Of a stretch of DNA of 64,000 nt, positions 20,748 through 60,866 are shown one piece after another (positions within the stretch are counted from its first letter, which is position 1; each line of letters starts with the position of its first letter). Origin of the DNA: Promethearchaeota archaeon (GTDB taxonomy: Archaea > Asgardarchaeota > Lokiarchaeia > Sigyniarchaeales > SOKP01). The notes beneath the pieces were generated by a model that ran no database searches, had not been told where the DNA came from, and saw only the letters and a program-made list of their open reading frames with translations. The position numbers and the translations under genes are program-made. The stretch lies in NCBI GenBank assembly GCA_048941065.1, contig JBHLNY010000001.1:28-64027 (forward strand), read 5' to 3'.

Positions 20748-20889
20748 TTATCTTCCTTATATTAACAATATATTACTATTTTAATTTTAAAATTTGGTTC
20801 ATAAAATTTTTTAAATGGTTTTAACTAAATTTAATTGTTCAAACTTGCTCTTTAACGATTTAATTAAAATTCAAAAACGTTCTCTCAAT

Positions 20890-20963
20890 GGGAGAGTGGC
20901 TTAGCCTGGTATAGCGCACGGCTGATAACCGTGAGGTCGGGGGTTCGAAGCCCCCCTTTCCCA
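20890..20963 (+). tRNA. tRNA-Ile (anticodon GAT), no intron, no encoded CCA
   Basis: Hand-folded cloverleaf. The acceptor stem is GGGAGAG/CTTTCCC with one G-U pair. The anticodon stem is CACGG/CCGTG with loop CTGATAA. The T arm is GGGGG-TTCGAAG-CCCCC. The discriminator is A. Confidence 0.9.
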
Positions 20964-21038
20964 TTATTATAGTTGACGATTAGTTCAAAATATTTACCAT
21001 TATCTTTTTAATCAACAATCCCTATTATTAAATTATAA

Positions 21039-24929: not shown

Positions 24930-25034
24930 CGGGCCTAGCAGGATTCGAACCTGCGACTTTCGGATTAGAAGTCCGACGCCCTATCCATACTAGACTAACT
25001 AAGGCGGTTAGTTAATTTGCTAGGCTATAGGCCC
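24930..25034 (-). tRNA. tRNA-Arg (anticodon TCT) with ~30-nt intron in the D-loop
   Basis: The minus-strand sequence GGGCCTATAGCCTA[GCAAATTAACTAACCGCCTTAGTTAGTCTA]GTATGGATAGGGCGTCGGACTTCTAATCCGAAAGTCGCAGGTTCGAATCCTGCTAGGCCCG folds into a cloverleaf only after the bracketed segment (about 24991-25020) is removed. Confidence 0.8.
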
Positions 25035-52105: not shown

Positions 52106-53047
52106 TTGGATATGAAGATTATGCTATGCGGGCTTGAAGATGCAGGAAAAACGTCAATTTTACTAGTCTTAGATAAGAAATTTAGTCTCTTAACTTCAGT
52201 TGCCCCTACTATAAAGGCTAAGAGAACTTCACATACTAATAAACTATTAGGTATTTCAATCACACGTTGGGATTTAGGTGGTCAAAAAAGTTTTAGAAAG
52301 ATATATATTGACAATAAAAGTAAATATTTTACCGAAATGCGTTCAATCTTTTACGTAATTGATATACAAAGTAAAGATAAATTTACTGAAGCTCTATCTT
52401 ATCTTAAAGATATTATAAATATTATTTCACATAACCCTCCTGAAAATTTTCAACTATTAATCCTTTTTCATAAATATGATCCAGATATAAAAAATAAAAA
52501 AGAAATTTTAGATAATTTAAGCTTTTTAGAGAAAAAAATAAATTCACTAATTAAAAAATTAAATTTCTCTGTTTATAGAACTTCGATCTATGATGATTCT
52601 TCTTTACTAAAAGCATTTTCAGATGGAGTATTTACTGCTACTGAGAAATCAAAATTGCTCCAATCTTTATTAAGAGATTACATGAGTAAAACATATACTA
52701 GTTCTACTCTACTTTTGGATCAAAATTGTTTTATAATCGCAAGTAGAGCTACTGATGATGCATACCAGGGAATATGCGAAGCAATTGCTCCCAGATTAAC
52801 AAATGCATTAGAAAAATTAGAAGAATGGGATATTGATACAAAAGATATTATCACAAATATAGAATTTCCTCAAAATAATGTAGAAGATTCTAGAGAGGGC
52901 ATAATTTTTTTAAGAAAATTAGAAATAAACAATGATAGATTATATCTTATTGCACTTTGCTTAAACAAAAGGATACAGAAAAAATCCTATGATTATCTAC
53001 CAATATTAGCTAAAAATCTAAAGAATTTATTAGAAAGTTTTGAATAA
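52106..53047 (+). CDS. Rag/Gtr1-family small GTPase with C-terminal roadblock-like domain
   Basis: G1 is GLEDAGKTS and G3 is WDLGGQ. G4 is HKYD (Rag-type HKxD rather than NKxD). The G5 region YRTSIYDDSSLLKAFS parallels RagA TSIWDETLYKAWS. The C-terminal ~120 aa aligns by eye with the Rag C-terminal roadblock domain. It starts at TTG 52106 or ATG 52112. Confidence 0.85.
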   Translation: MDMKIMLCGLEDAGKTSILLVLDKKFSLLTSVAPTIKAKRTSHTNKLLGISITRWDLGGQKSFRKIYIDNKSKYFTEMRSIFYVIDIQSKDKFTEALSYLKDIINIISHNPPENFQLLILFHKYDPDIKNKKEILDNLSFLEKKINSLIKKLNFSVYRTSIYDDSSLLKAFSDGVFTATEKSKLLQSLLRDYMSKTYTSSTLLLDQNCFIIASRATDDAYQGICEAIAPRLTNALEKLEEWDIDTKDIITNIEFPQNNVEDSREGIIFLRKLEINNDRLYLIALCLNKRIQKKSYDYLPILAKNLKNLLESFE

Positions 53048-53183: not shown

Positions 53184-54374
53184 ATGATTGTTGATTCAGA
53201 AAGTTATAATGAATATGTTGGACCAAAAGCTATATTTGATCCAAATTACATCCCCCCTCAACTATTATATAGAGAAAAAGAAGTACAATCATTATATTCT
53301 ATTTTAGATGATTCAATAGCAGATCGATTTTGTCTTAATATAATATATCAAGGAATTCAAGGAATCGGGAAAAAAGTTGTTGTCAATAAAGTATTAAAGG
53401 ATTTATTAGCTAAAAATAAGGAATTAGTAAATATTCATAAAATTTGTATTGATTGCAAAGAAAAAAATCTAGAGGATTTAATTTTTTCAATATTAACTGA
53501 ATTAAATCGCTTTTCAAGTTTTAACATCGATTTTAATTCAATTTTAAATTCAAAAATCTCTCATTTGTGGAATATCATTAAATTAGCATGTAAAAAAGTT
53601 AATAGTGGTCTCTTTTTTTTATTCTATAATATAGAATCTTTGAAGCCTGATGTCTTTAAGAAGTTCTTACAATTTGGGAAAGAATCAAATATTACATTAA
53701 TTTCTACGGTAAATACAATTTTGAAGCCTTCGACTTTAGATTTGTTATCCGAATTTGATTTCAAAAAAAAATTAAACTTTTTTACTTATAATGAACTTTA
53801 TTCAATTCTTAAACAGAGAGTATCTCTTACGTTTACTCATGAAATTGATAAAGAGTTAATAAGATATATTACAGATCTAATTTGTGAATATTATGTGCCA
53901 GTACCAGGAAAAGGTATTGACATTTTAAGAGATACCTATCCATTGCTAATAGAAAAGAAAAATTTCAAAAATTATGAAATAATTGATATATGTCAGAATG
54001 AATTCGATTCAATTCAAGTTACGGATGAATTTTGTATTTTAAATTATGTTTCTGAAGAAAATCTTTTAACAATAATATTTTTAGATAATCTCTCTAACTA
54101 CTTCTTAAAAAAGCTGAACCTTTATATCTCTTTGGAAGAACTGAATGAAATTTATGATATTTCTTGTGAATCTTTAGAATATAAAAAGAATCTGAATGAA
54201 TTTAATGAATTAATTAAAAGATTGCTTAGTTTTGGAATTTTAAGTGGTTCAAAAAGAAATCCTTCCAAAAAGAAATCTTATTTATTAAATAATGCTTCAA
54301 ATTTTGAATCTTTCTTTATGGTATTGAACCCCAAACAACTAAAAGCGATAGTAGATGCAATATTTAATAAATAG
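53184..54374 (+). CDS. cdc6: Orc1/Cdc6-family AAA+ protein, divergent paralog with degenerate nucleotide-site motifs
   Basis: It has the characteristic opening FDPNYIPPQLLYREKEVQSLYSIL...NIIYQGIQGIGKK and FFTYNELYSILKQRV. Walker A ends GKK instead of GKT. Walker B is FYNIE instead of LDE. The sensor-2 region is GKGIDILR instead of GDAR(R)A.DLLR. Confidence 0.7.
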   Translation: MIVDSESYNEYVGPKAIFDPNYIPPQLLYREKEVQSLYSILDDSIADRFCLNIIYQGIQGIGKKVVVNKVLKDLLAKNKELVNIHKICIDCKEKNLEDLIFSILTELNRFSSFNIDFNSILNSKISHLWNIIKLACKKVNSGLFFLFYNIESLKPDVFKKFLQFGKESNITLISTVNTILKPSTLDLLSEFDFKKKLNFFTYNELYSILKQRVSLTFTHEIDKELIRYITDLICEYYVPVPGKGIDILRDTYPLLIEKKNFKNYEIIDICQNEFDSIQVTDEFCILNYVSEENLLTIIFLDNLSNYFLKKLNLYISLEELNEIYDISCESLEYKKNLNEFNELIKRLLSFGILSGSKRNPSKKKSYLLNNASNFESFFMVLNPKQLKAIVDAIFNK

Positions 54375-54530: not shown

Positions 54531-57500
54531 TTGACATATATTAAAAAAATCTCTATGACTGGTTTTAAATCGTTTGGAGAGCGAACAGTAACTATCAAAT
54601 TTTCAAGTGGTTTTACATGTATTGTCGGGCCAAATGGTGCAGGTAAATCTAATATCATAGATGCATTATGTTTTGCTTTGGGCAGATTAAGTAAGAAGAC
54701 TATGAGAGCAAAAAGTCTGGAAGACCTTATTTTTGCTGGTGCGAAAGGAAAAAATCCCTCAACTCGTGCTTCTGTGACAATGTATTTTGACAATTCAGAA
54801 AATGTTTTTCCTGGAGGTACTGACACATTCGAAATAACACGGACTATAAAAAGAGGTGGCGGTGGAGGATATAAAATGAATGGTAAAAAAGTAACTCGTC
54901 AACAAATACTAAATGCTTTAGCAGCAGCCAATGTGGATCCAGATGGTAGTAATCAATTTGTTCTTCAAGGTAAAATAGTTGAATTAACTCATATGAATGC
55001 AGAAGAAAGAAGGATTTTCATTGAGGAATTAATTGGACTTCAAAAATATGACGAAATGAAAGATTCTACCTTAAAAGAGTTAGAAAAAGCAGAAAGAGAT
55101 TTAGGTCAGTTTGAGGCAATTTTTAAAGAGGTTTCTGCTCAGCTTAAAAAAGTTGAAAAGGAAAAAAATGATGCTTTAGCTTGGAAAGAATTAGACCAAC
55201 AAATTAATTTTCTAAATTCACAATTAATTGCTTTAAAAATTTCAAAATTACGAGAAGAAGAAGATGAATTAGACAAAAAAATTGAAGCATCTTCAAAAAT
55301 TATTGAAGAATTAAAAGAAAAGATCTCTAGACAAGAAGATGTTCTGAAACAAGAATCTTTAGTTATGGAAAACATTCAAAAAACGATTACTGAGAAAGAA
55401 AAGGAAAGAGAAGAAATAAATGAAAATATCACAAATTTAAAAACACAATTATCTTCAAGTCAAACAACTTTAGATTTAGCTAAAAAATCAATAGATAAGA
55501 CAACACAAGAAATAAAAAATTTAGAAAATTTGCTAATGGTTCTTGAGGAAGGACAAACTTATGATTCTCTAATACAAGATGTATCAAGTCAAATTTCTGA
55601 ATGTGATAATCATCTAGAGGCTGCTAAAAAAGAAATTGAAAAAAGACAGCAAAATCAATCAGAGTTTGATATTAAAATTAAAAATAGCGAGGATGAAAAA
55701 TCCCAATTTAATTCTGAAATTTCAAAAGTACAACAAGATATTTCCTCAAATAATACTCAAATAAAGCTTCTTAGAGAAAGTATAAAGAAGAATGAAGATA
55801 AAAAAATTAAACTAGAAGCTGAATTGAATAAATTGAAGCAAGAAGCTGAAAGCATAGATGAAGCTATTGTTGAAACAAAAAAGACTGAGAAACAAATAAG
55901 AAAAAGAATTGAAGATTTAAAAGCAAAAATTAATGAAGAAAATCAAAAACAAAAAGAATTGGAAACTAACATTAATACTGTTCAAGAGGAAAAGAATCAA
56001 TTAAATTCAAAATTAGCTCTCTTACAATCTACATTATCTTCATTGAATACCGAAATAAGCATGAATAGAAGTACTATACAAGATTTAAATGGTAAAAAAA
56101 CTTCTATTGAGAATAAAATTAGAGATTTAAGTAAAGGTAAAGATACAGAAGAGGTCGTAAAAGCCTTATTGAAGGAAAATGAAAACATCAACAAACAATT
56201 GAGTGAATTTAAAGCAGATTTAAAGAAAGAAAACTCAGGATTCAGAAGTAATGAACAGAATCTAGAATTATTAAACATGAAAAAATATTCATTTGATTCA
56301 GAAATTCATGATAATAATGCAAAAATAGATAATCTTAATACAGAACTAAAAATTTTCAAAAAAGAATTTACTAAATTAGAACGTGAAAAAGGTAATTTAG
56401 AACAACAAATTAAAACATTAAATAGTGATCTATCAAACATAAATAAAGATACAGAAAATTTCAATTTTAAAAGCCAGAATGTTCAAAGACGTTTAGAAGA
56501 ACTTTCAAAGGAAAGAGGTAATTTATTAGAAAAAATTGAAACTTCTGAAGAAGAATATGAAAAAAATACAAGAGATATTACTGGAATTCTTCAAATCTTA
56601 AATATGCTTACCCAAAATATTAATATCTCAGTCGAATCAATAAAAAGTAACATTCAATTATCAAATGCAGAAGCAATTGAAACCTCAGCTGAAGATTTCA
56701 AAAAGTTTGTATTAGATCTTGTAGATATTATGAAAAGCGTTGAAGGGATTGGTATTGATAAGGATCAATCCTCTGAAATGTCAAGTATGCTAAATTCTAT
56801 TCTACGAACTTTAAAAATGTTTACTGATAATGCTGATGCAACAATTGATCAATTAATTAATAAAGTAAAAGAATCTGCTGATATAGAAGTACAAGAATCC
56901 ACCGCGACATTTGATAGTTTTGTGCAAGATTTAATGGAAATTCTTGAAAATGTCTATATTTCATTAAGAAAATTAACTATGTCAAAAAGTCAAGATCTGT
57001 ACAAACAATTAGAAGACATCTCTGAAAATATTAAATCACAGAGTGATGATTTTAATGATTCTGAGAAAAAATTGTCAGAATTAAGTATTCAAAAAAAACA
57101 TTATTCTGAAACTTTATCAACACTAACAAGAAGACTTGAAGAAATTAATGAAAGAAATAATGAATTAAATAAAAGAATTAAAAATTCTGAAGAAGAAATT
57201 GAAGATAGATACAAAGTAGTTAAAGAAAAACAAAATGAAATTGAAACCTTAGAAATTGAGATAAAAAAATCCAAAGAGCTGAAAGATGCTTATTGGGAAA
57301 AGTTAACAAACATTCAAGATAATATTGAAAAAAAACAAAATGAATTAGAAGACTTAAGACTAAAACTTCAAGAGTTGCATGGAATCCAAAATCTATTTGA
57401 AAATATTACTGAGATTGAGGAGGATATAGGAAAATTAAACAATGTTATTGAAGAAAAGAAAAATTCAATTATTAATACAGAAGAAAACATAAATCAGATC

Positions 57501-58985
57501 CAAGCTGAACAAAAAACGCTAGAAAGCAAAATTGAAGCTCTAATTTCAGAAAAAGAAGAATTTTGGGGAAAAACAGAAAGTTTGAGAGTAGAAATAGACA
57601 AAGAAAATGGTGTTTTAGAAGAGACAATGGATCGATTAAGAGCACTTGAAAATGTAATGAGAATTATTAGTTCTATTGAAGATATTAAGAAAGAAAATAT
57701 TGATGCTAACAACAATATTGAACTATGTCTAACTAATATAGAAAAACTCAATTCTCAAGTAGATGAAATTCAAAAAAATGTTGATCAAAAGCAACAAGTT
57801 ATAGATTCTTTGAGAAATGAAAAAACTAAAGAAGTAGAATTACAAAAAAAAGCTCAGAAAGAATTAAATAAATTAAATAAAGATTTACAGAAATACCAAC
57901 GTCAATTAAATGAGCTTACCAAAAATAGGGAAAGAGAACTAAAAATTATAGAATTAAATCAAGATATTAAGGATACGGAAAAACAAATAGAATCTATCAT
58001 AGAAGAATTAGGAAAATTTGAAGTTCAATTAAATAATGAAAATGAGAAAAAAGATGTAAAGCAAAAAGAAATTGATGAATTCAATCAAAAAAAGGATGAA
58101 TCATGGAATAAGCAAAAGCAGTATCAAAAAATCTTAAATGATTTAAAATCAGATCTCTCTATGGAAAATTCTAAAATCAACAATTATGAATCTAAAAAGA
58201 TAATTTGTAATGATCAAATTGAGACATTATTCCAGAGATCTAAAGAATATGGGTCACTTCCTACTGTTACTGAGGGTTTAACAGAAGCAGAGTTACAAGC
58301 GGATATAGGGGAAGTGACAACGAAGAAAAAAGCGCTTGAACCTGTCAATTTAAAAGCTATTGAACAATATGATGCAGTAAAAGAGAGATTTGATGAAATT
58401 GATATGCGAAGACAGACTATACAACGGGAACGCAAGTCCATTTTAGATGCAATAGATAAAATTGAACTTGAAAAAACAAGAACTTTCATGAAAGCGTATC
58501 ATGAAATAAATCGGGAGTTCAGCAGAATTTTTCAGAAGCTTAGTCCTGGTGGATCGGCTAAGATGATCTTAGATCGCCCTGATAAACCCTTCGAAGGAGG
58601 AATTAGTATCGAAGCTCGTCCTCGTGGGAAGAAAATTTCGAGTTTAGAAATTCTTAGTGGGGGAGAAAAAACCTTAGTCGCTTTATCTTTCATTTTTGCT
58701 GTTCAAGAATTCTATCCTGCTCCATTCTATGTTATGGATGAAATTGATGCTGCACTTGACGGTCCTAATGTGCATAGAGTCAGTATGGTTATAAAAGAAT
58801 TTGCATCACAAGCTCAATTTATGGTGATAAGCCATCGTGAGGAAAATATCGTTAATGCAGATAGAATCTATGGTGTTTCAATGCAACAGAGTGGGATTAC
58901 TGATATCTTTAGTGTTGATTTAGAAGAAGAGGCCAAAAGGCTTTTAGAACTTGAGGATATTGAACCAACTATAACAGAAAATTAA
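54531..58985 (+). CDS. smc: SMC (structural maintenance of chromosomes) ATPase, unusually long, non-canonical central region
   Basis: TTG start. The N-terminal head is MTYIKKISMTGFKSFGE...GPNGAGKSNIIDALCFALG. The C-terminal head has LSGGEKTLVALSFIFA and YVMDEIDAALD. About 1100 aa of coiled coil lie between them. It is followed by scpA and scpB. Confidence 0.9.
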   Translation: MTYIKKISMTGFKSFGERTVTIKFSSGFTCIVGPNGAGKSNIIDALCFALGRLSKKTMRAKSLEDLIFAGAKGKNPSTRASVTMYFDNSENVFPGGTDTFEITRTIKRGGGGGYKMNGKKVTRQQILNALAAANVDPDGSNQFVLQGKIVELTHMNAEERRIFIEELIGLQKYDEMKDSTLKELEKAERDLGQFEAIFKEVSAQLKKVEKEKNDALAWKELDQQINFLNSQLIALKISKLREEEDELDKKIEASSKIIEELKEKISRQEDVLKQESLVMENIQKTITEKEKEREEINENITNLKTQLSSSQTTLDLAKKSIDKTTQEIKNLENLLMVLEEGQTYDSLIQDVSSQISECDNHLEAAKKEIEKRQQNQSEFDIKIKNSEDEKSQFNSEISKVQQDISSNNTQIKLLRESIKKNEDKKIKLEAELNKLKQEAESIDEAIVETKKTEKQIRKRIEDLKAKINEENQKQKELETNINTVQEEKNQLNSKLALLQSTLSSLNTEISMNRSTIQDLNGKKTSIENKIRDLSKGKDTEEVVKALLKENENINKQLSEFKADLKKENSGFRSNEQNLELLNMKKYSFDSEIHDNNAKIDNLNTELKIFKKEFTKLEREKGNLEQQIKTLNSDLSNINKDTENFNFKSQNVQRRLEELSKERGNLLEKIETSEEEYEKNTRDITGILQILNMLTQNINISVESIKSNIQLSNAEAIETSAEDFKKFVLDLVDIMKSVEGIGIDKDQSSEMSSMLNSILRTLKMFTDNADATIDQLINKVKESADIEVQESTATFDSFVQDLMEILENVYISLRKLTMSKSQDLYKQLEDISENIKSQSDDFNDSEKKLSELSIQKKHYSETLSTLTRRLEEINERNNELNKRIKNSEEEIEDRYKVVKEKQNEIETLEIEIKKSKELKDAYWEKLTNIQDNIEKKQNELEDLRLKLQELHGIQNLFENITEIEEDIGKLNNVIEEKKNSIINTEENINQIQAEQKTLESKIEALISEKEEFWGKTESLRVEIDKENGVLEETMDRLRALENVMRIISSIEDIKKENIDANNNIELCLTNIEKLNSQVDEIQKNVDQKQQVIDSLRNEKTKEVELQKKAQKELNKLNKDLQKYQRQLNELTKNRERELKIIELNQDIKDTEKQIESIIEELGKFEVQLNNENEKKDVKQKEIDEFNQKKDESWNKQKQYQKILNDLKSDLSMENSKINNYESKKIICNDQIETLFQRSKEYGSLPTVTEGLTEAELQADIGEVTTKKKALEPVNLKAIEQYDAVKERFDEIDMRRQTIQRERKSILDAIDKIELEKTRTFMKAYHEINREFSRIFQKLSPGGSAKMILDRPDKPFEGGISIEARPRGKKISSLEILSGGEKTLVALSFIFAVQEFYPAPFYVMDEIDAALDGPNVHRVSMVIKEFASQAQFMVISHREENIVNADRIYGVSMQQSGITDIFSVDLEEEAKRLLELEDIEPTITEN

Positions 58986-59016: not shown

Positions 59017-60009
59017 ATGTCAGAAGAAGAAGAATCAATAAAACCATATGATTTTCCCAACTGGACAGTAAAGGAATTAAGGGAATTTGCTGATAAGAAT
59101 AACATAAAAATTCCAACAAAGTCTAAGAAAAAAGAAATTATTGAATTACTAGATAAAATAGTATCTCATCCTGAATTTGTTGATAGATCTCAAGAACCAG
59201 AAGAACTTGAAGTAGAACTGGTTGCTGAGTTTGAAGAAGAAGATCTTGCTTTGTTAAGAAAGGAAAAAACAGAGTTAAAATTTTGGCAAAAGCCACCTTT
59301 TTCAAGCCTATTAGATCCTGAATTAGCAAAAGAATCAGAAATCGCATTTTATGATTTAGCTAGCCTGGTAGACAAATTCTTTGATAATATGCTTCATGAG
59401 GAATTAATCAATTATAAAATATCAGGTATTGCTCTTAAAACATCAGCAAGTTTACATCATTATAAAATTTCGAGTATAATCAGAGAAGAAGAACAAATAC
59501 AGAAAATGGAAGAATTACGAAAATTTAGAGAAAGACATGGTAGATCGATTCCAAAAACATTACCACAGCCAATACAACCTAAAATGCAAATTGCTACAAA
59601 AGAAGAGTTGTTTGATGCTATGAGATCTGCAATTATAGAGGTCATGCAGAATAAGGAAAAGATAAGAAGGAGACAAATTAGAAAAGAAGAATTAAAACAA
59701 CAAAGAATACAAATGAAATCTAAAGCACAGCTCCCTAAGGAACTTCTAAAACATATCAGTGGAAGAGAACAAACGATTGAAGAATTACATGAATCATGGT
59801 ATAATCGTATAAAAGCAACTACTAATCTAAATAATAAACCAACTAGTTTTTTTGACTTAACAGAAATTATAAAAACTGAAGAAGAAAGCGATTTAGGCAG
59901 AAAATTTTCATTAGTAAGGATGTTTTTAGCTTTAATGTTTTTATCCACTGGAAATAAATTGTCTTTATCTCAAGATGAAGATTTTAGCGATATCTCAGTA
60001 ATGATTTGA
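59017..60009 (+). CDS. scpA: ScpA (kleisin) with N-terminal SAP/HeH-like extension
   Basis: The kleisin N-terminal WHD region is FYDLASLVDKFFDNML...ISGIALKTSASLHHYK. The C-terminal WHD is LVRMFLALMFLSTGNKLSLSQDEDFSDISV. The N-terminus has WTVKELREFADKNNIKIPTKSKKKEIIELLDKI. Confidence 0.8.
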   Translation: MSEEEESIKPYDFPNWTVKELREFADKNNIKIPTKSKKKEIIELLDKIVSHPEFVDRSQEPEELEVELVAEFEEEDLALLRKEKTELKFWQKPPFSSLLDPELAKESEIAFYDLASLVDKFFDNMLHEELINYKISGIALKTSASLHHYKISSIIREEEQIQKMEELRKFRERHGRSIPKTLPQPIQPKMQIATKEELFDAMRSAIIEVMQNKEKIRRRQIRKEELKQQRIQMKSKAQLPKELLKHISGREQTIEELHESWYNRIKATTNLNNKPTSFFDLTEIIKTEEESDLGRKFSLVRMFLALMFLSTGNKLSLSQDEDFSDISVMI

Positions 60010-60044: not shown

Positions 60045-60866
60045 ATGAATGAGTCTGAAAAAAATTTAGATCAAAATTCAGAAAAGGACCTTGATGAAAA
60101 TTTAGAAGAAAATTCTAAAGAATATGATGATGGTACAATGAGGAATGATACCAGAATTGAAAAAAATAATGAAGATTTCGAGGAACCTTCTGAAAACAAT
60201 ATTATTCAAGATGTAGAAGAAAGTGCTGCTGTAGGTTCTATTGAAGAAAAAGTAGAGTCAATTAATAAAGAACAAACTATTCACAGGGAAGAATTGGATG
60301 AAGAATTATTAAAAAAGCAAGTAAGAGAATTCCATCGAAATTTAATTGAGGCTTCTTTATATGCTGCTGGTAGACCTTTGACTATCGAAGAGATATCAAC
60401 TAAATTAGAATTACCTAAAAAAGAAGTGGAAGAATTGACTAATGAAATAGCTTTTGATTATTTAGAACGCTCCTCGGCATTAATAATAGCCCAAATAGGG
60501 GATAGATATCAAATGCAGATTAAACCTGAATACACAGAAAAAGTCTCTAAATTTGCTAAAGGTGGAGCCATTGCTGAACGCTATTTAAGGACATTAACCT
60601 TGATTGCACTAAAGCAACCAATATTAAAATCAACAGTAGTAAAGTTAAGAGGTACTGGAGCTTATGAACATGTAAAATATCTTGTAGATAATGGATTTAT
60701 AAATGCAGTAAAAAAAGGGCGATCTCAAGAATTAACTACTACTGATAAATATGCTGATATGTTTGGGTTACCTAAAAATATACCTCAATTAAAAAAGGCT
60801 ATGATCGCCCAGCTAGGAGTCGAGGAAATAAGAAAAAGTGAGCAACCAGATGAAAATGAAGAATAA
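60045..60866 (+). CDS. scpB: ScpB (kite subunit) with ~90-aa acidic N-terminal extension
   Basis: IEASLYAAGRPLTIEEIS...YLRTLTLIALKQPILKSTVVKLRGTGAYEHVKYLVDNGFI is the tandem-WHD ScpB pattern. Confidence 0.85.
   Translation: MNESEKNLDQNSEKDLDENLEENSKEYDDGTMRNDTRIEKNNEDFEEPSENNIIQDVEESAAVGSIEEKVESINKEQTIHREELDEELLKKQVREFHRNLIEASLYAAGRPLTIEEISTKLELPKKEVEELTNEIAFDYLERSSALIIAQIGDRYQMQIKPEYTEKVSKFAKGGAIAERYLRTLTLIALKQPILKSTVVKLRGTGAYEHVKYLVDNGFINAVKKGRSQELTTTDKYADMFGLPKNIPQLKKAMIAQLGVEEIRKSEQPDENEE

Follow-up and report, generated by a model that had tools for sequence, protein, structure and literature searches.

Identification of the smc gene

The DNA analysed here (the window) is a 64,000-nucleotide stretch of contig JBHLNY010000001.1 from assembly GCA_048941065.1 of a Promethearchaeota archaeon, and it carries on its forward strand an smc gene for a protein of 1484 amino acids (aa), followed by a kleisin-like gene and scpB. 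The ATPase heads of this Smc are canonical, and the middle of the protein contains neither a globular hinge nor a zinc hook. A conserved module, predicted to be a helical hairpin, is found there instead, and on balance it seems to have taken over the role of the hinge in dimerisation. The parts of the gene are the following.

54531..58985, forward strand: complete smc gene, 1484 aa, TTG start (open reading frame list and translation; SMC_N, E 2.9e-42; TIGR02168; heads as in Smc 5xei)
54531..55025, forward strand: N-terminal half of the ATPase head, aa 1-165, with Walker A GPNGAGKS at aa 33 (motif scan, PDB alignment, column identity)
55026..56576, forward strand: N-terminal strand of the arm (aa 166-682, 517 aa), a heptad coiled coil interrupted by short breaks in phase (periodicity, AlphaFold2)
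56577..56738, forward strand: repeat A of the tip module, aa 683-736 (hhalign against repeat B, periodicity, column identity)
56739..56789, forward strand: variable acidic loop with the predicted chain reversal, aa 737-753, modelled loop aa 741-746 (AlphaFold2, insertions and deletions)
56790..56951, forward strand: repeat B of the tip module, aa 754-807, net charge -7 (homology to repeat A, periodicity)
56952..57050, forward strand: conserved stretch extending repeat B, aa 808-840, in which the 11/3 periodicity persists before the heptad arm resumes (sliding-window periodicity; column identity 85-93%)
57051..58340, forward strand: C-terminal strand of the arm (aa 841-1270), a heptad coiled coil together with the head-proximal joint (periodicity map, helix model)
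58341..58982, forward strand: C-terminal half of the ATPase head, aa 1271-1484, with the signature motif LSGG (aa 1375) and Walker B FYVMDE (aa 1399) (motif scan, PDB alignment)

A search of PDB sequences aligned the first 250 and the last 220 residues with the head construct of Pyrococcus yayanosii Smc (5xei, E 1e-120), and with the whole protein as query the matches were confined to the heads. The N-terminus, MTYIKKISMTGFKSFG, aligns with the P. yayanosii head residue for residue, and Walker A, the signature motif and Walker B were all found intact. The N-terminal half of the head has a column identity of 90-92% among 120 orthologues. Besides SMC_N, Pfam returned only generic P-loop models and coiled-coil noise for the whole protein. 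Against the NCBIfam models the whole protein scored 623.8 bits with TIGR02168, which is above the cut-off of 567.35, and 637.7 bits with the archaeal Smc model TIGR02169, which is below the cut-off of 729.4; this shortfall is expected if about 170 profile positions belonging to the hinge are missing.

The first-pass annotation of this DNA had described the protein as the condensin-type SMC of the cell, with canonical heads and about 300 residues more than a canonical Smc. The heads are indeed canonical by the motifs and the 5xei match, and the assignment as a condensin-type Smc is supported by the TIGR02168 score, the P. yayanosii-type heads, the adjacent ScpB (E 1.8e-33) and the synteny in 40 of 48 loci described below. 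The open reading frame bears out the unusual length, which is not an accident of assembly, since 147 related sequences are 1460-1505 aa long; an assembly artefact as the source of the hinge-less Smc is thus effectively excluded. The central region had been placed correctly at 56580-56990, the sequence quoted for it beginning at aa 683, which corresponds to nucleotide 56577.

Absence of the hinge and of a zinc hook

The SMC_hinge family PF06470 was not matched by the whole Smc at E<=1, nor by the central fragments aa 401-1100, 501-1000 and 601-900 at E<=10. Nothing beyond coiled-coil noise came up for these fragments, the matches to families such as ATG16, Spectrin and Apolipoprotein all staying below the cut-offs, and a hinge hidden in the centre was ruled out on these grounds. 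The positive control, a canonical Bacillus-type hinge sequence, scored E 8.3e-37 with PF06470 in the same library; when the profile of the module was aligned by hhalign with this hinge sequence, the probability was 0.04%. A PDB search with the profile of the central region found nothing, its best E value of 0.14 belonging to a weak match of the module to Vta1 that was treated as chance.

As for a zinc hook at the tip, it was ruled out by the motif scan, in which no CxxC was found anywhere in the protein; furthermore, no conserved cysteine exists in aa 560-960 across the 120 orthologues. The Lokiarchaeal Smc therefore lacks both hinge and hook. This agrees with what had been noticed by eye, namely that the midpoint shows no conserved hinge features, the glycine motifs included, and no Rad50-type hook, and no PF06470 match appeared to contradict it.

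Sequence features and predicted fold of the tip module

The place of the hinge is occupied by a module of about 160 residues (aa 683-840) that contains two homologous repeats of 54 aa each, aa 683-736 and 754-807, related to each other with an hhalign probability of 94.7% (E 5.8e-8). The acidic loop is the only site of insertions and deletions in the module alignments, and its identity is 48-62% among the 120 orthologues. At the module the type of coiled coil changes. The arms have heptad periodicity, with a spectral peak at 3.5 and hydrophobic residues at two of seven positions, which in the sliding-window analysis spans aa 164-680 and 822-1157. Both repeats, by comparison, peak at a period of 3.65-3.67 with zero power at 3.5, and the hydrophobic residues of the module occupy four positions in each 11-residue frame with the spacing 3-4-3-1 (11/3, or hendecad). 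The hydrophobic seam is broader than in the arms, the hydrophobic content rises from 0.21-0.29 to 0.35-0.46 in the module, the charged fraction drops, and the net charge of aa 683-840 is -14.

The module is also better conserved than the arms. Compared with the Smc of the window, the 120 orthologues have a mean identity of 90-94% over the heads and 77% over aa 676-840, while the arms reach 60-63%. The non-hydrophobic (surface) columns of the module have an identity of 80-92%, those of the arms 68-71% and those of the heads 90-97%, and in repeat A the identity amounts to 92% at core and surface columns alike. The exposed faces of the module are thus constrained, which is the signature of an interaction surface on all faces.

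Two AlphaFold2 models were made, both from shallow alignments: one of aa 570-950, with an alignment of 61 orthologues, and one of aa 660-850 alone, with a more diverse alignment including distant copies of the module from the tandem-module family described below. The first model consists of exactly two unbroken helices, aa 571-740 and 747-949, with a mean predicted local distance difference test score (pLDDT) of 86, and a single reversal loop of six residues, aa 741-746, that lies exactly halfway along the protein. Confidence is highest in the flanking arms (pLDDT above 90), intermediate in the conserved centre (65-85) and lowest in the loop (about 50). The second model has the same helix-loop-helix topology at lower confidence (pLDDT 69, predicted TM-score (pTM) 0.33) and did not sharpen the fold. 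In both models the loop residues are the only non-helical ones. Foldseek searches of the PDB with the model of aa 570-950 returned only long antiparallel hairpins, i.e. the chemoreceptor cytoplasmic domain 2ch7, Rad50 (7zr1), the MukB elbow and Smc arms, and the module-only model had no significant structural neighbour (best E 0.15). The tip is accordingly predicted to be a helical hairpin. The centre had already looked helical in the first reading of the letters, an impression with which the all-helical models and the amphipathic 11/3 periodicity agree, and the point of arm reversal can now be placed at the predicted loop, aa 741-746.

Length of the arms

An arm strand of this Smc is roughly 470-520 residues long, compared with about 340 in a typical Smc. 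From head to module, the N-terminal strand comprises 517 residues and the C-terminal strand 430-463, so that each is roughly 130-180 residues above the common 341-residue mode of Smc. The related proteins form two length classes with nothing between them, a long one of 1460-1505 aa (147 sequences), in which the module starts at aa 647-665, and a short one of 1290-1304 aa (9 sequences), in which it starts at aa 559-561. Over 180 sequences the distance from module to head is fixed, in these two discrete length classes. In the short class both strands are reduced, the N-terminal one by about 97 residues (aa 479-506 and 517-585 missing) and the C-terminal one by about 90 (aa 873-962 missing). These deletions form a pair at roughly matching heights of the arm, as expected of a paired, tuned arm. 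Smc arm lengths have been reported to be quantised in steps of about 100 residues (PMC5344682), and the difference of about 95 residues per strand between the two classes fits this well; the existence of two discrete classes thus supports the idea of a quantised arm length.

Distribution of the module in SMC proteins

The module profile matched 38 sequences among 1.84 billion representative proteins, all of them SMCs of Lokiarchaeota and Sigynarchaeota with a central module, fragments of such SMCs, or members of a family with tandem modules and a lysine-rich tail. SMCs of other Asgard phyla gave no match to the profile in that search, which is indirect evidence that the hinge may have been retained in them; a search with the short-class SMC P0139, aimed at hinge-bearing SMCs of sister Asgard lineages, had its matches filled by Lokiarchaeal proteins. 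When one genome per GTDB species was scanned, the module was found at an identity of at least 65% in 100 genomes, most of them labelled Promethearchaeota (the NCBI name for Lokiarchaeota), and in all, more than 100 species have an SMC with the module. PF06470 was found in none of the 240 rows from two full-length SMC searches, many proteins being in both lists, and all 34 extra SMCs of the second search contain the module. Among these 34 are a protein labelled Sigynarchaeota and the 'Chromosome partition protein Smc' of the cultured Lokiarchaeum ossiferum (1505 aa).

The labels of some metagenome-assembled genomes are inconsistent with each other, SMC sequences 70-87% identical being filed under Hod-, Thor-, Hermod- and Odinarchaeota names, with modules 73-87% identical to that of the Smc in the window (L001, L005, L007, L011, L048 and others); such labels look unreliable. 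An SMC of the Lokiarchaeal type also occurs in a metagenome-assembled genome labelled Candidatus Nanopelagicaceae (Actinobacteria; L075), whose contig DATKTW010000114.1 is probably mis-binned.

A second family with tandem modules

The second family to contain the module comprises about 14 clusters of proteins of 900-1180 aa, with two tandem tip modules per chain near the N-terminus (approximately aa 45-249 and 298-500). Beyond the modules these proteins have a conserved region that is not helical, then a short coiled coil, and finally a tail rich in lysine. Members include DSAG12_01461 of Promethearchaeum syntrophicum MK-D1 (L081:8001-10766) and WKT22_04228 of L. ossiferum (L083:8001-11336), and none has any Pfam match. 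The three kinds of module, that of SMC and the two tandem copies, align without gaps outside the loop. In both cultured species the gene stands in a syntenic neighbourhood of GMP synthase, a HEAT-repeat protein, two proteins without Pfam matches and a hydrolase, from which no functional clue was obtained. No tandem-module copy is present within the window. The occurrence of exactly two modules per chain fits modules acting in pairs.

Gene neighbourhood of smc

Directly downstream of smc the following two genes were found.

59017..60009, forward strand: candidate kleisin (ScpA-like), 330 aa, with an N-terminal SAP/HeH-like motif (weak SMC_ScpA match, position)
60045..60866, forward strand: scpB (kite subunit), 273 aa (PF04079, E 1.8e-33; TIGR00281, 93.9 bits against a cut-off of 89.2)

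Of the earlier statement that scpA and scpB follow smc, the part on scpB stood, while that on scpA is weakly borne out. The candidate kleisin matched PF02616 (SMC_ScpA) weakly at E 1.3e-3, with 19.3 bits against a cut-off of 24.6, and its C-terminus gave a weak match to Rad21_Rec8 (E 0.053). The ScpA match was not reproduced by Pfam in six orthologues, and neither sequence nor profile searches of the PDB yielded a match. Position and size of the gene fit ScpA. A helix-extended-helix motif of the SAP/HeH/Rho_N kind at aa 11-47 (about nucleotides 59047-59157) is kept in all six orthologues of the candidate. In ScpB, the domain is limited to aa 100-250 and preceded by an N-terminal extension of about 100 aa; the 'long form' model NF001106 is matched weakly (73.5 bits against a cut-off of 300).

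The order smc, kleisin-like gene, scpB is kept in 40 of the 48 related loci with enough downstream sequence, and also in a relative that is 43% identical (L084). In the remaining eight loci, among close relatives (L002:6039-13111, also L003 and L071), scpA and scpB do not come after smc; the gene that does so in L002 is an open reading frame of 863 aa on the opposite strand.

The protein encoded directly upstream of smc (53184-54374, 396 aa) has only faint matches to the Cdc6 C-terminal domain and AAA_16, and it keeps this position in 69 of 80 related loci. The gene at 52106-53047, two upstream of smc, encodes a small GTPase of the Gtr1/RagA family (PF04670, E 5.3e-28), a eukaryote-signature protein of Asgard archaea, which is syntenic in 38 loci. 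The only RNA genes found by tRNA and Rfam scans of the window are tRNA-Ile (GAT) at 20889-20964 and tRNA-Arg (TCT) at 24931-25005. The G+C content of the window is about 26% overall.

Proposed role of the tip module

The hinge is regarded as the constitutive dimer interface of SMC proteins, as a DNA-binding surface and as a proposed DNA gate. In the Smc subunit of the Lokiarchaeal Smc-kleisin-ScpB complex, this globular domain would have been replaced during evolution. At the end of the arm the chain would run through the helical module, aa 683-840, and turn back at the short acidic loop without forming an alpha/beta hinge. Two Smc tips might then pair via the module, most simply as a four-helix bundle of two hairpins, and the paired tips would supply the constitutive dimerisation that is normally given by the hinge or by the zinc hook of Rad50, so that the Smc-kleisin ring would be closed at the far end of its arms, whose length is put at about 80 nm. 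The module being acidic, it probably does not supply a DNA-binding surface of the hinge type.

That the helical tip module replaces the hinge as the dimerisation element is considered the likelier explanation, if not by far. It is supported by the conservation on all faces, the change of coiled-coil type at the tip and the fixed distance between head and module, as well as by the two modules per chain in the tandem family and the zinc-hook precedent in Bacillus subtilis described below. Several points weigh against it. Tip-to-tip dimerisation and ring closure form a step that we infer, and the antiparallel pairing of the two helices is itself deduced from secondary structure and Foldseek matches. 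The pLDDT of the module (65-85 in context, 69 in isolation) and its pTM of 0.33 are low, so that both an extended hairpin and a more compactly packed bundle are conceivable as the exact fold, and the four-in-eleven hydrophobic pattern would also fit a two-helix hendecad hairpin alone. The assignment of the 330-aa gene as a kleisin is weak, and the genome data extend over 64 kb, a point taken up again below.

The main rival explanation, to which a minor but real share of probability is given, is that the module serves as a docking site for a lineage-specific factor and not for homodimerisation, the partner being, for example, the tandem-module lysine-tailed proteins or another anchor on chromosome or envelope, and the Smc chains being held together only by co-alignment of the arms, head engagement and the kleisin. 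Conservation on all faces indeed shows an interface without naming the partner, heterotypic module-module contacts are conceivable with a module shared by a non-SMC lysine-tailed family, and the module alone was modelled at low confidence. However, the tandem-module family amounts to about 14 clusters against more than 100 species with the SMC module, it was not found in the 64-kb window, and in the published comparisons of the SMC superfamily that were consulted (PMC5344682, PMC9389158) it is a dimerisation element, hinge or zinc hook, that the coiled-coil apex carries.

A broader and rather doubtful proposal combines both functions. The module would be a portable, self-recognising domain that closes the SMC rings of Lokiarchaeota, with the DNA-binding and gate roles of the hinge being dispensable throughout an archaeal phylum, and through which SMC tips dock on the lysine-tailed protein, itself probably DNA-bound. 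If true, such docking would tether the hinge end of an SMC complex to chromatin in a manner not known before.

It is slightly less probable still, and altogether improbable, that the protein is a specialised SMC-like paralogue and that a canonical hinge-bearing Smc elsewhere in the genome acts as the real condensin. The limitation of the genome data to 64 kb leaves room for such a gene, and the TIGR02169 score of 637.7 bits falls below its cut-off of 729.4; yet scpB adjoins smc in 40 of 48 loci and in the 43%-identical relative, the heads resemble bona fide Smc most closely, it is the module type that is annotated as Smc in the closed L. ossiferum genome, and PF06470 is absent from all 240 rows of the two SMC searches with their overlapping lists. 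Finally, the second of two possibilities offered by the first-pass annotation, a canonical hinge diverged beyond sequence recognition, is effectively excluded in favour of the first, a novel helical element, for although very divergent domains can escape sequence methods, the region is predicted as all-helical with a single loop in both models, is amphipathic with helical periodicity throughout, lacks the glycine motifs, resembles the hinge with an hhalign probability of 0.04% and yields only helical hairpins in Foldseek.

Comparison with known SMC systems

The hinge is viewed as universal in SMC-kleisin complexes and as one of their defining parts, and the literature searched contained no account of a Lokiarchaeal SMC without a hinge, of the module with its repeats, or of a second family with the module in tandem. 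It would appear that a whole phylum exchanged the hinge for an acidic helical module unrelated to it and retained the heads, the kleisin-like partner and ScpB. This phylum includes L. ossiferum, a cultured relative of eukaryotes, and the prediction is experimentally testable as this species is in culture. Eukaryotic SMCs are hinge-bearing, and the hinge-less Lokiarchaeal type is unlike them; comparisons of SMCs that use Lokiarchaeota alone could therefore mislead on the origin of eukaryotes.

With the Smc-ScpAB of Pyrococcus and Bacillus subtilis the Lokiarchaeal system shares the ABC heads with all their motifs, the long antiparallel coiled coil, the adjacent ScpB and kleisin-like genes, and a TIGR02168 score above the cut-off. 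It differs in having no PF06470 and, in its place, an acidic tip with 11/3 periodicity that is predicted as a helical hairpin, in arm strands that are about 130-180 residues longer, and in a protein longer by about 300 aa. Head, arm and ScpB are those of an Smc-ScpAB, and the hinge is missing.

Rad50/SbcC and the ASRP, ClsN and Sph proteins likewise combine SMC-superfamily heads with a hairpin coiled coil and no globular hinge. Rad50/SbcC differs further in its partner Mre11, the partner genes in the Lokiarchaeal locus being scpB and the kleisin candidate, and the best Rad50 model reached 109.8 bits against a cut-off of 700. Both groups dimerise through a CxxC zinc hook, which is typical of ASRPs (PMC9389158) and absent from the Lokiarchaeal Smc. 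With 167.9 bits against a cut-off of 300 for NF045487 (ASRP), and no CxxC, the protein does not fit the ASRP group, to which the first-pass annotation had suggested comparing it.

RecN also has no hinge and dimerises via a helical tip of its coiled coil. It is, however, a much shorter bacterial repair protein without kleisin or kite partners, and TIGR00634 (RecN) scored 28 bits against a cut-off of 407.85. The best Foldseek match, the cytoplasmic signalling domain of a chemoreceptor (MCP), 2ch7, resembles the predicted tip as a long antiparallel hairpin with a highly conserved end, and MCP hairpins dimerise into four-helix bundles, the arrangement proposed here for the Smc tip. At 12% identity and a TM-score of 0.3-0.4 there is no sequence relationship, and the likeness is a structural analogy only.

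The loss of a hinge has a precedent in an oceanic metagenomic clade of 'hinge-less' SMCs, assigned to Actinobacteria (Sussfeld et al. 2025, PMC12153180). Compared by its description only, that clade has SMC heads and arms and neither hinge nor CxxC, as in the Lokiarchaeal protein, but is of a bacterial lineage and has no tip module described. A closer parallel is the engineered Smc(Zh) of B. subtilis, in which the hinge was swapped for the zinc hook of Pyrococcus Rad50 and with which the cells grow normally (Burmann et al. 2017, PMC5344682). The chimera demonstrates that an Smc can function with a structurally unrelated, non-hinge dimerisation element at the tip of the arm; the Lokiarchaeal element differs from the hook in being a natural replacement and a far larger, helical module, with no metal-binding CxxC. 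The Lokiarchaeal Smc looks like the natural counterpart of this chimera, and would allow the hinge functions needed for loop extrusion or DNA entrapment to be tested.

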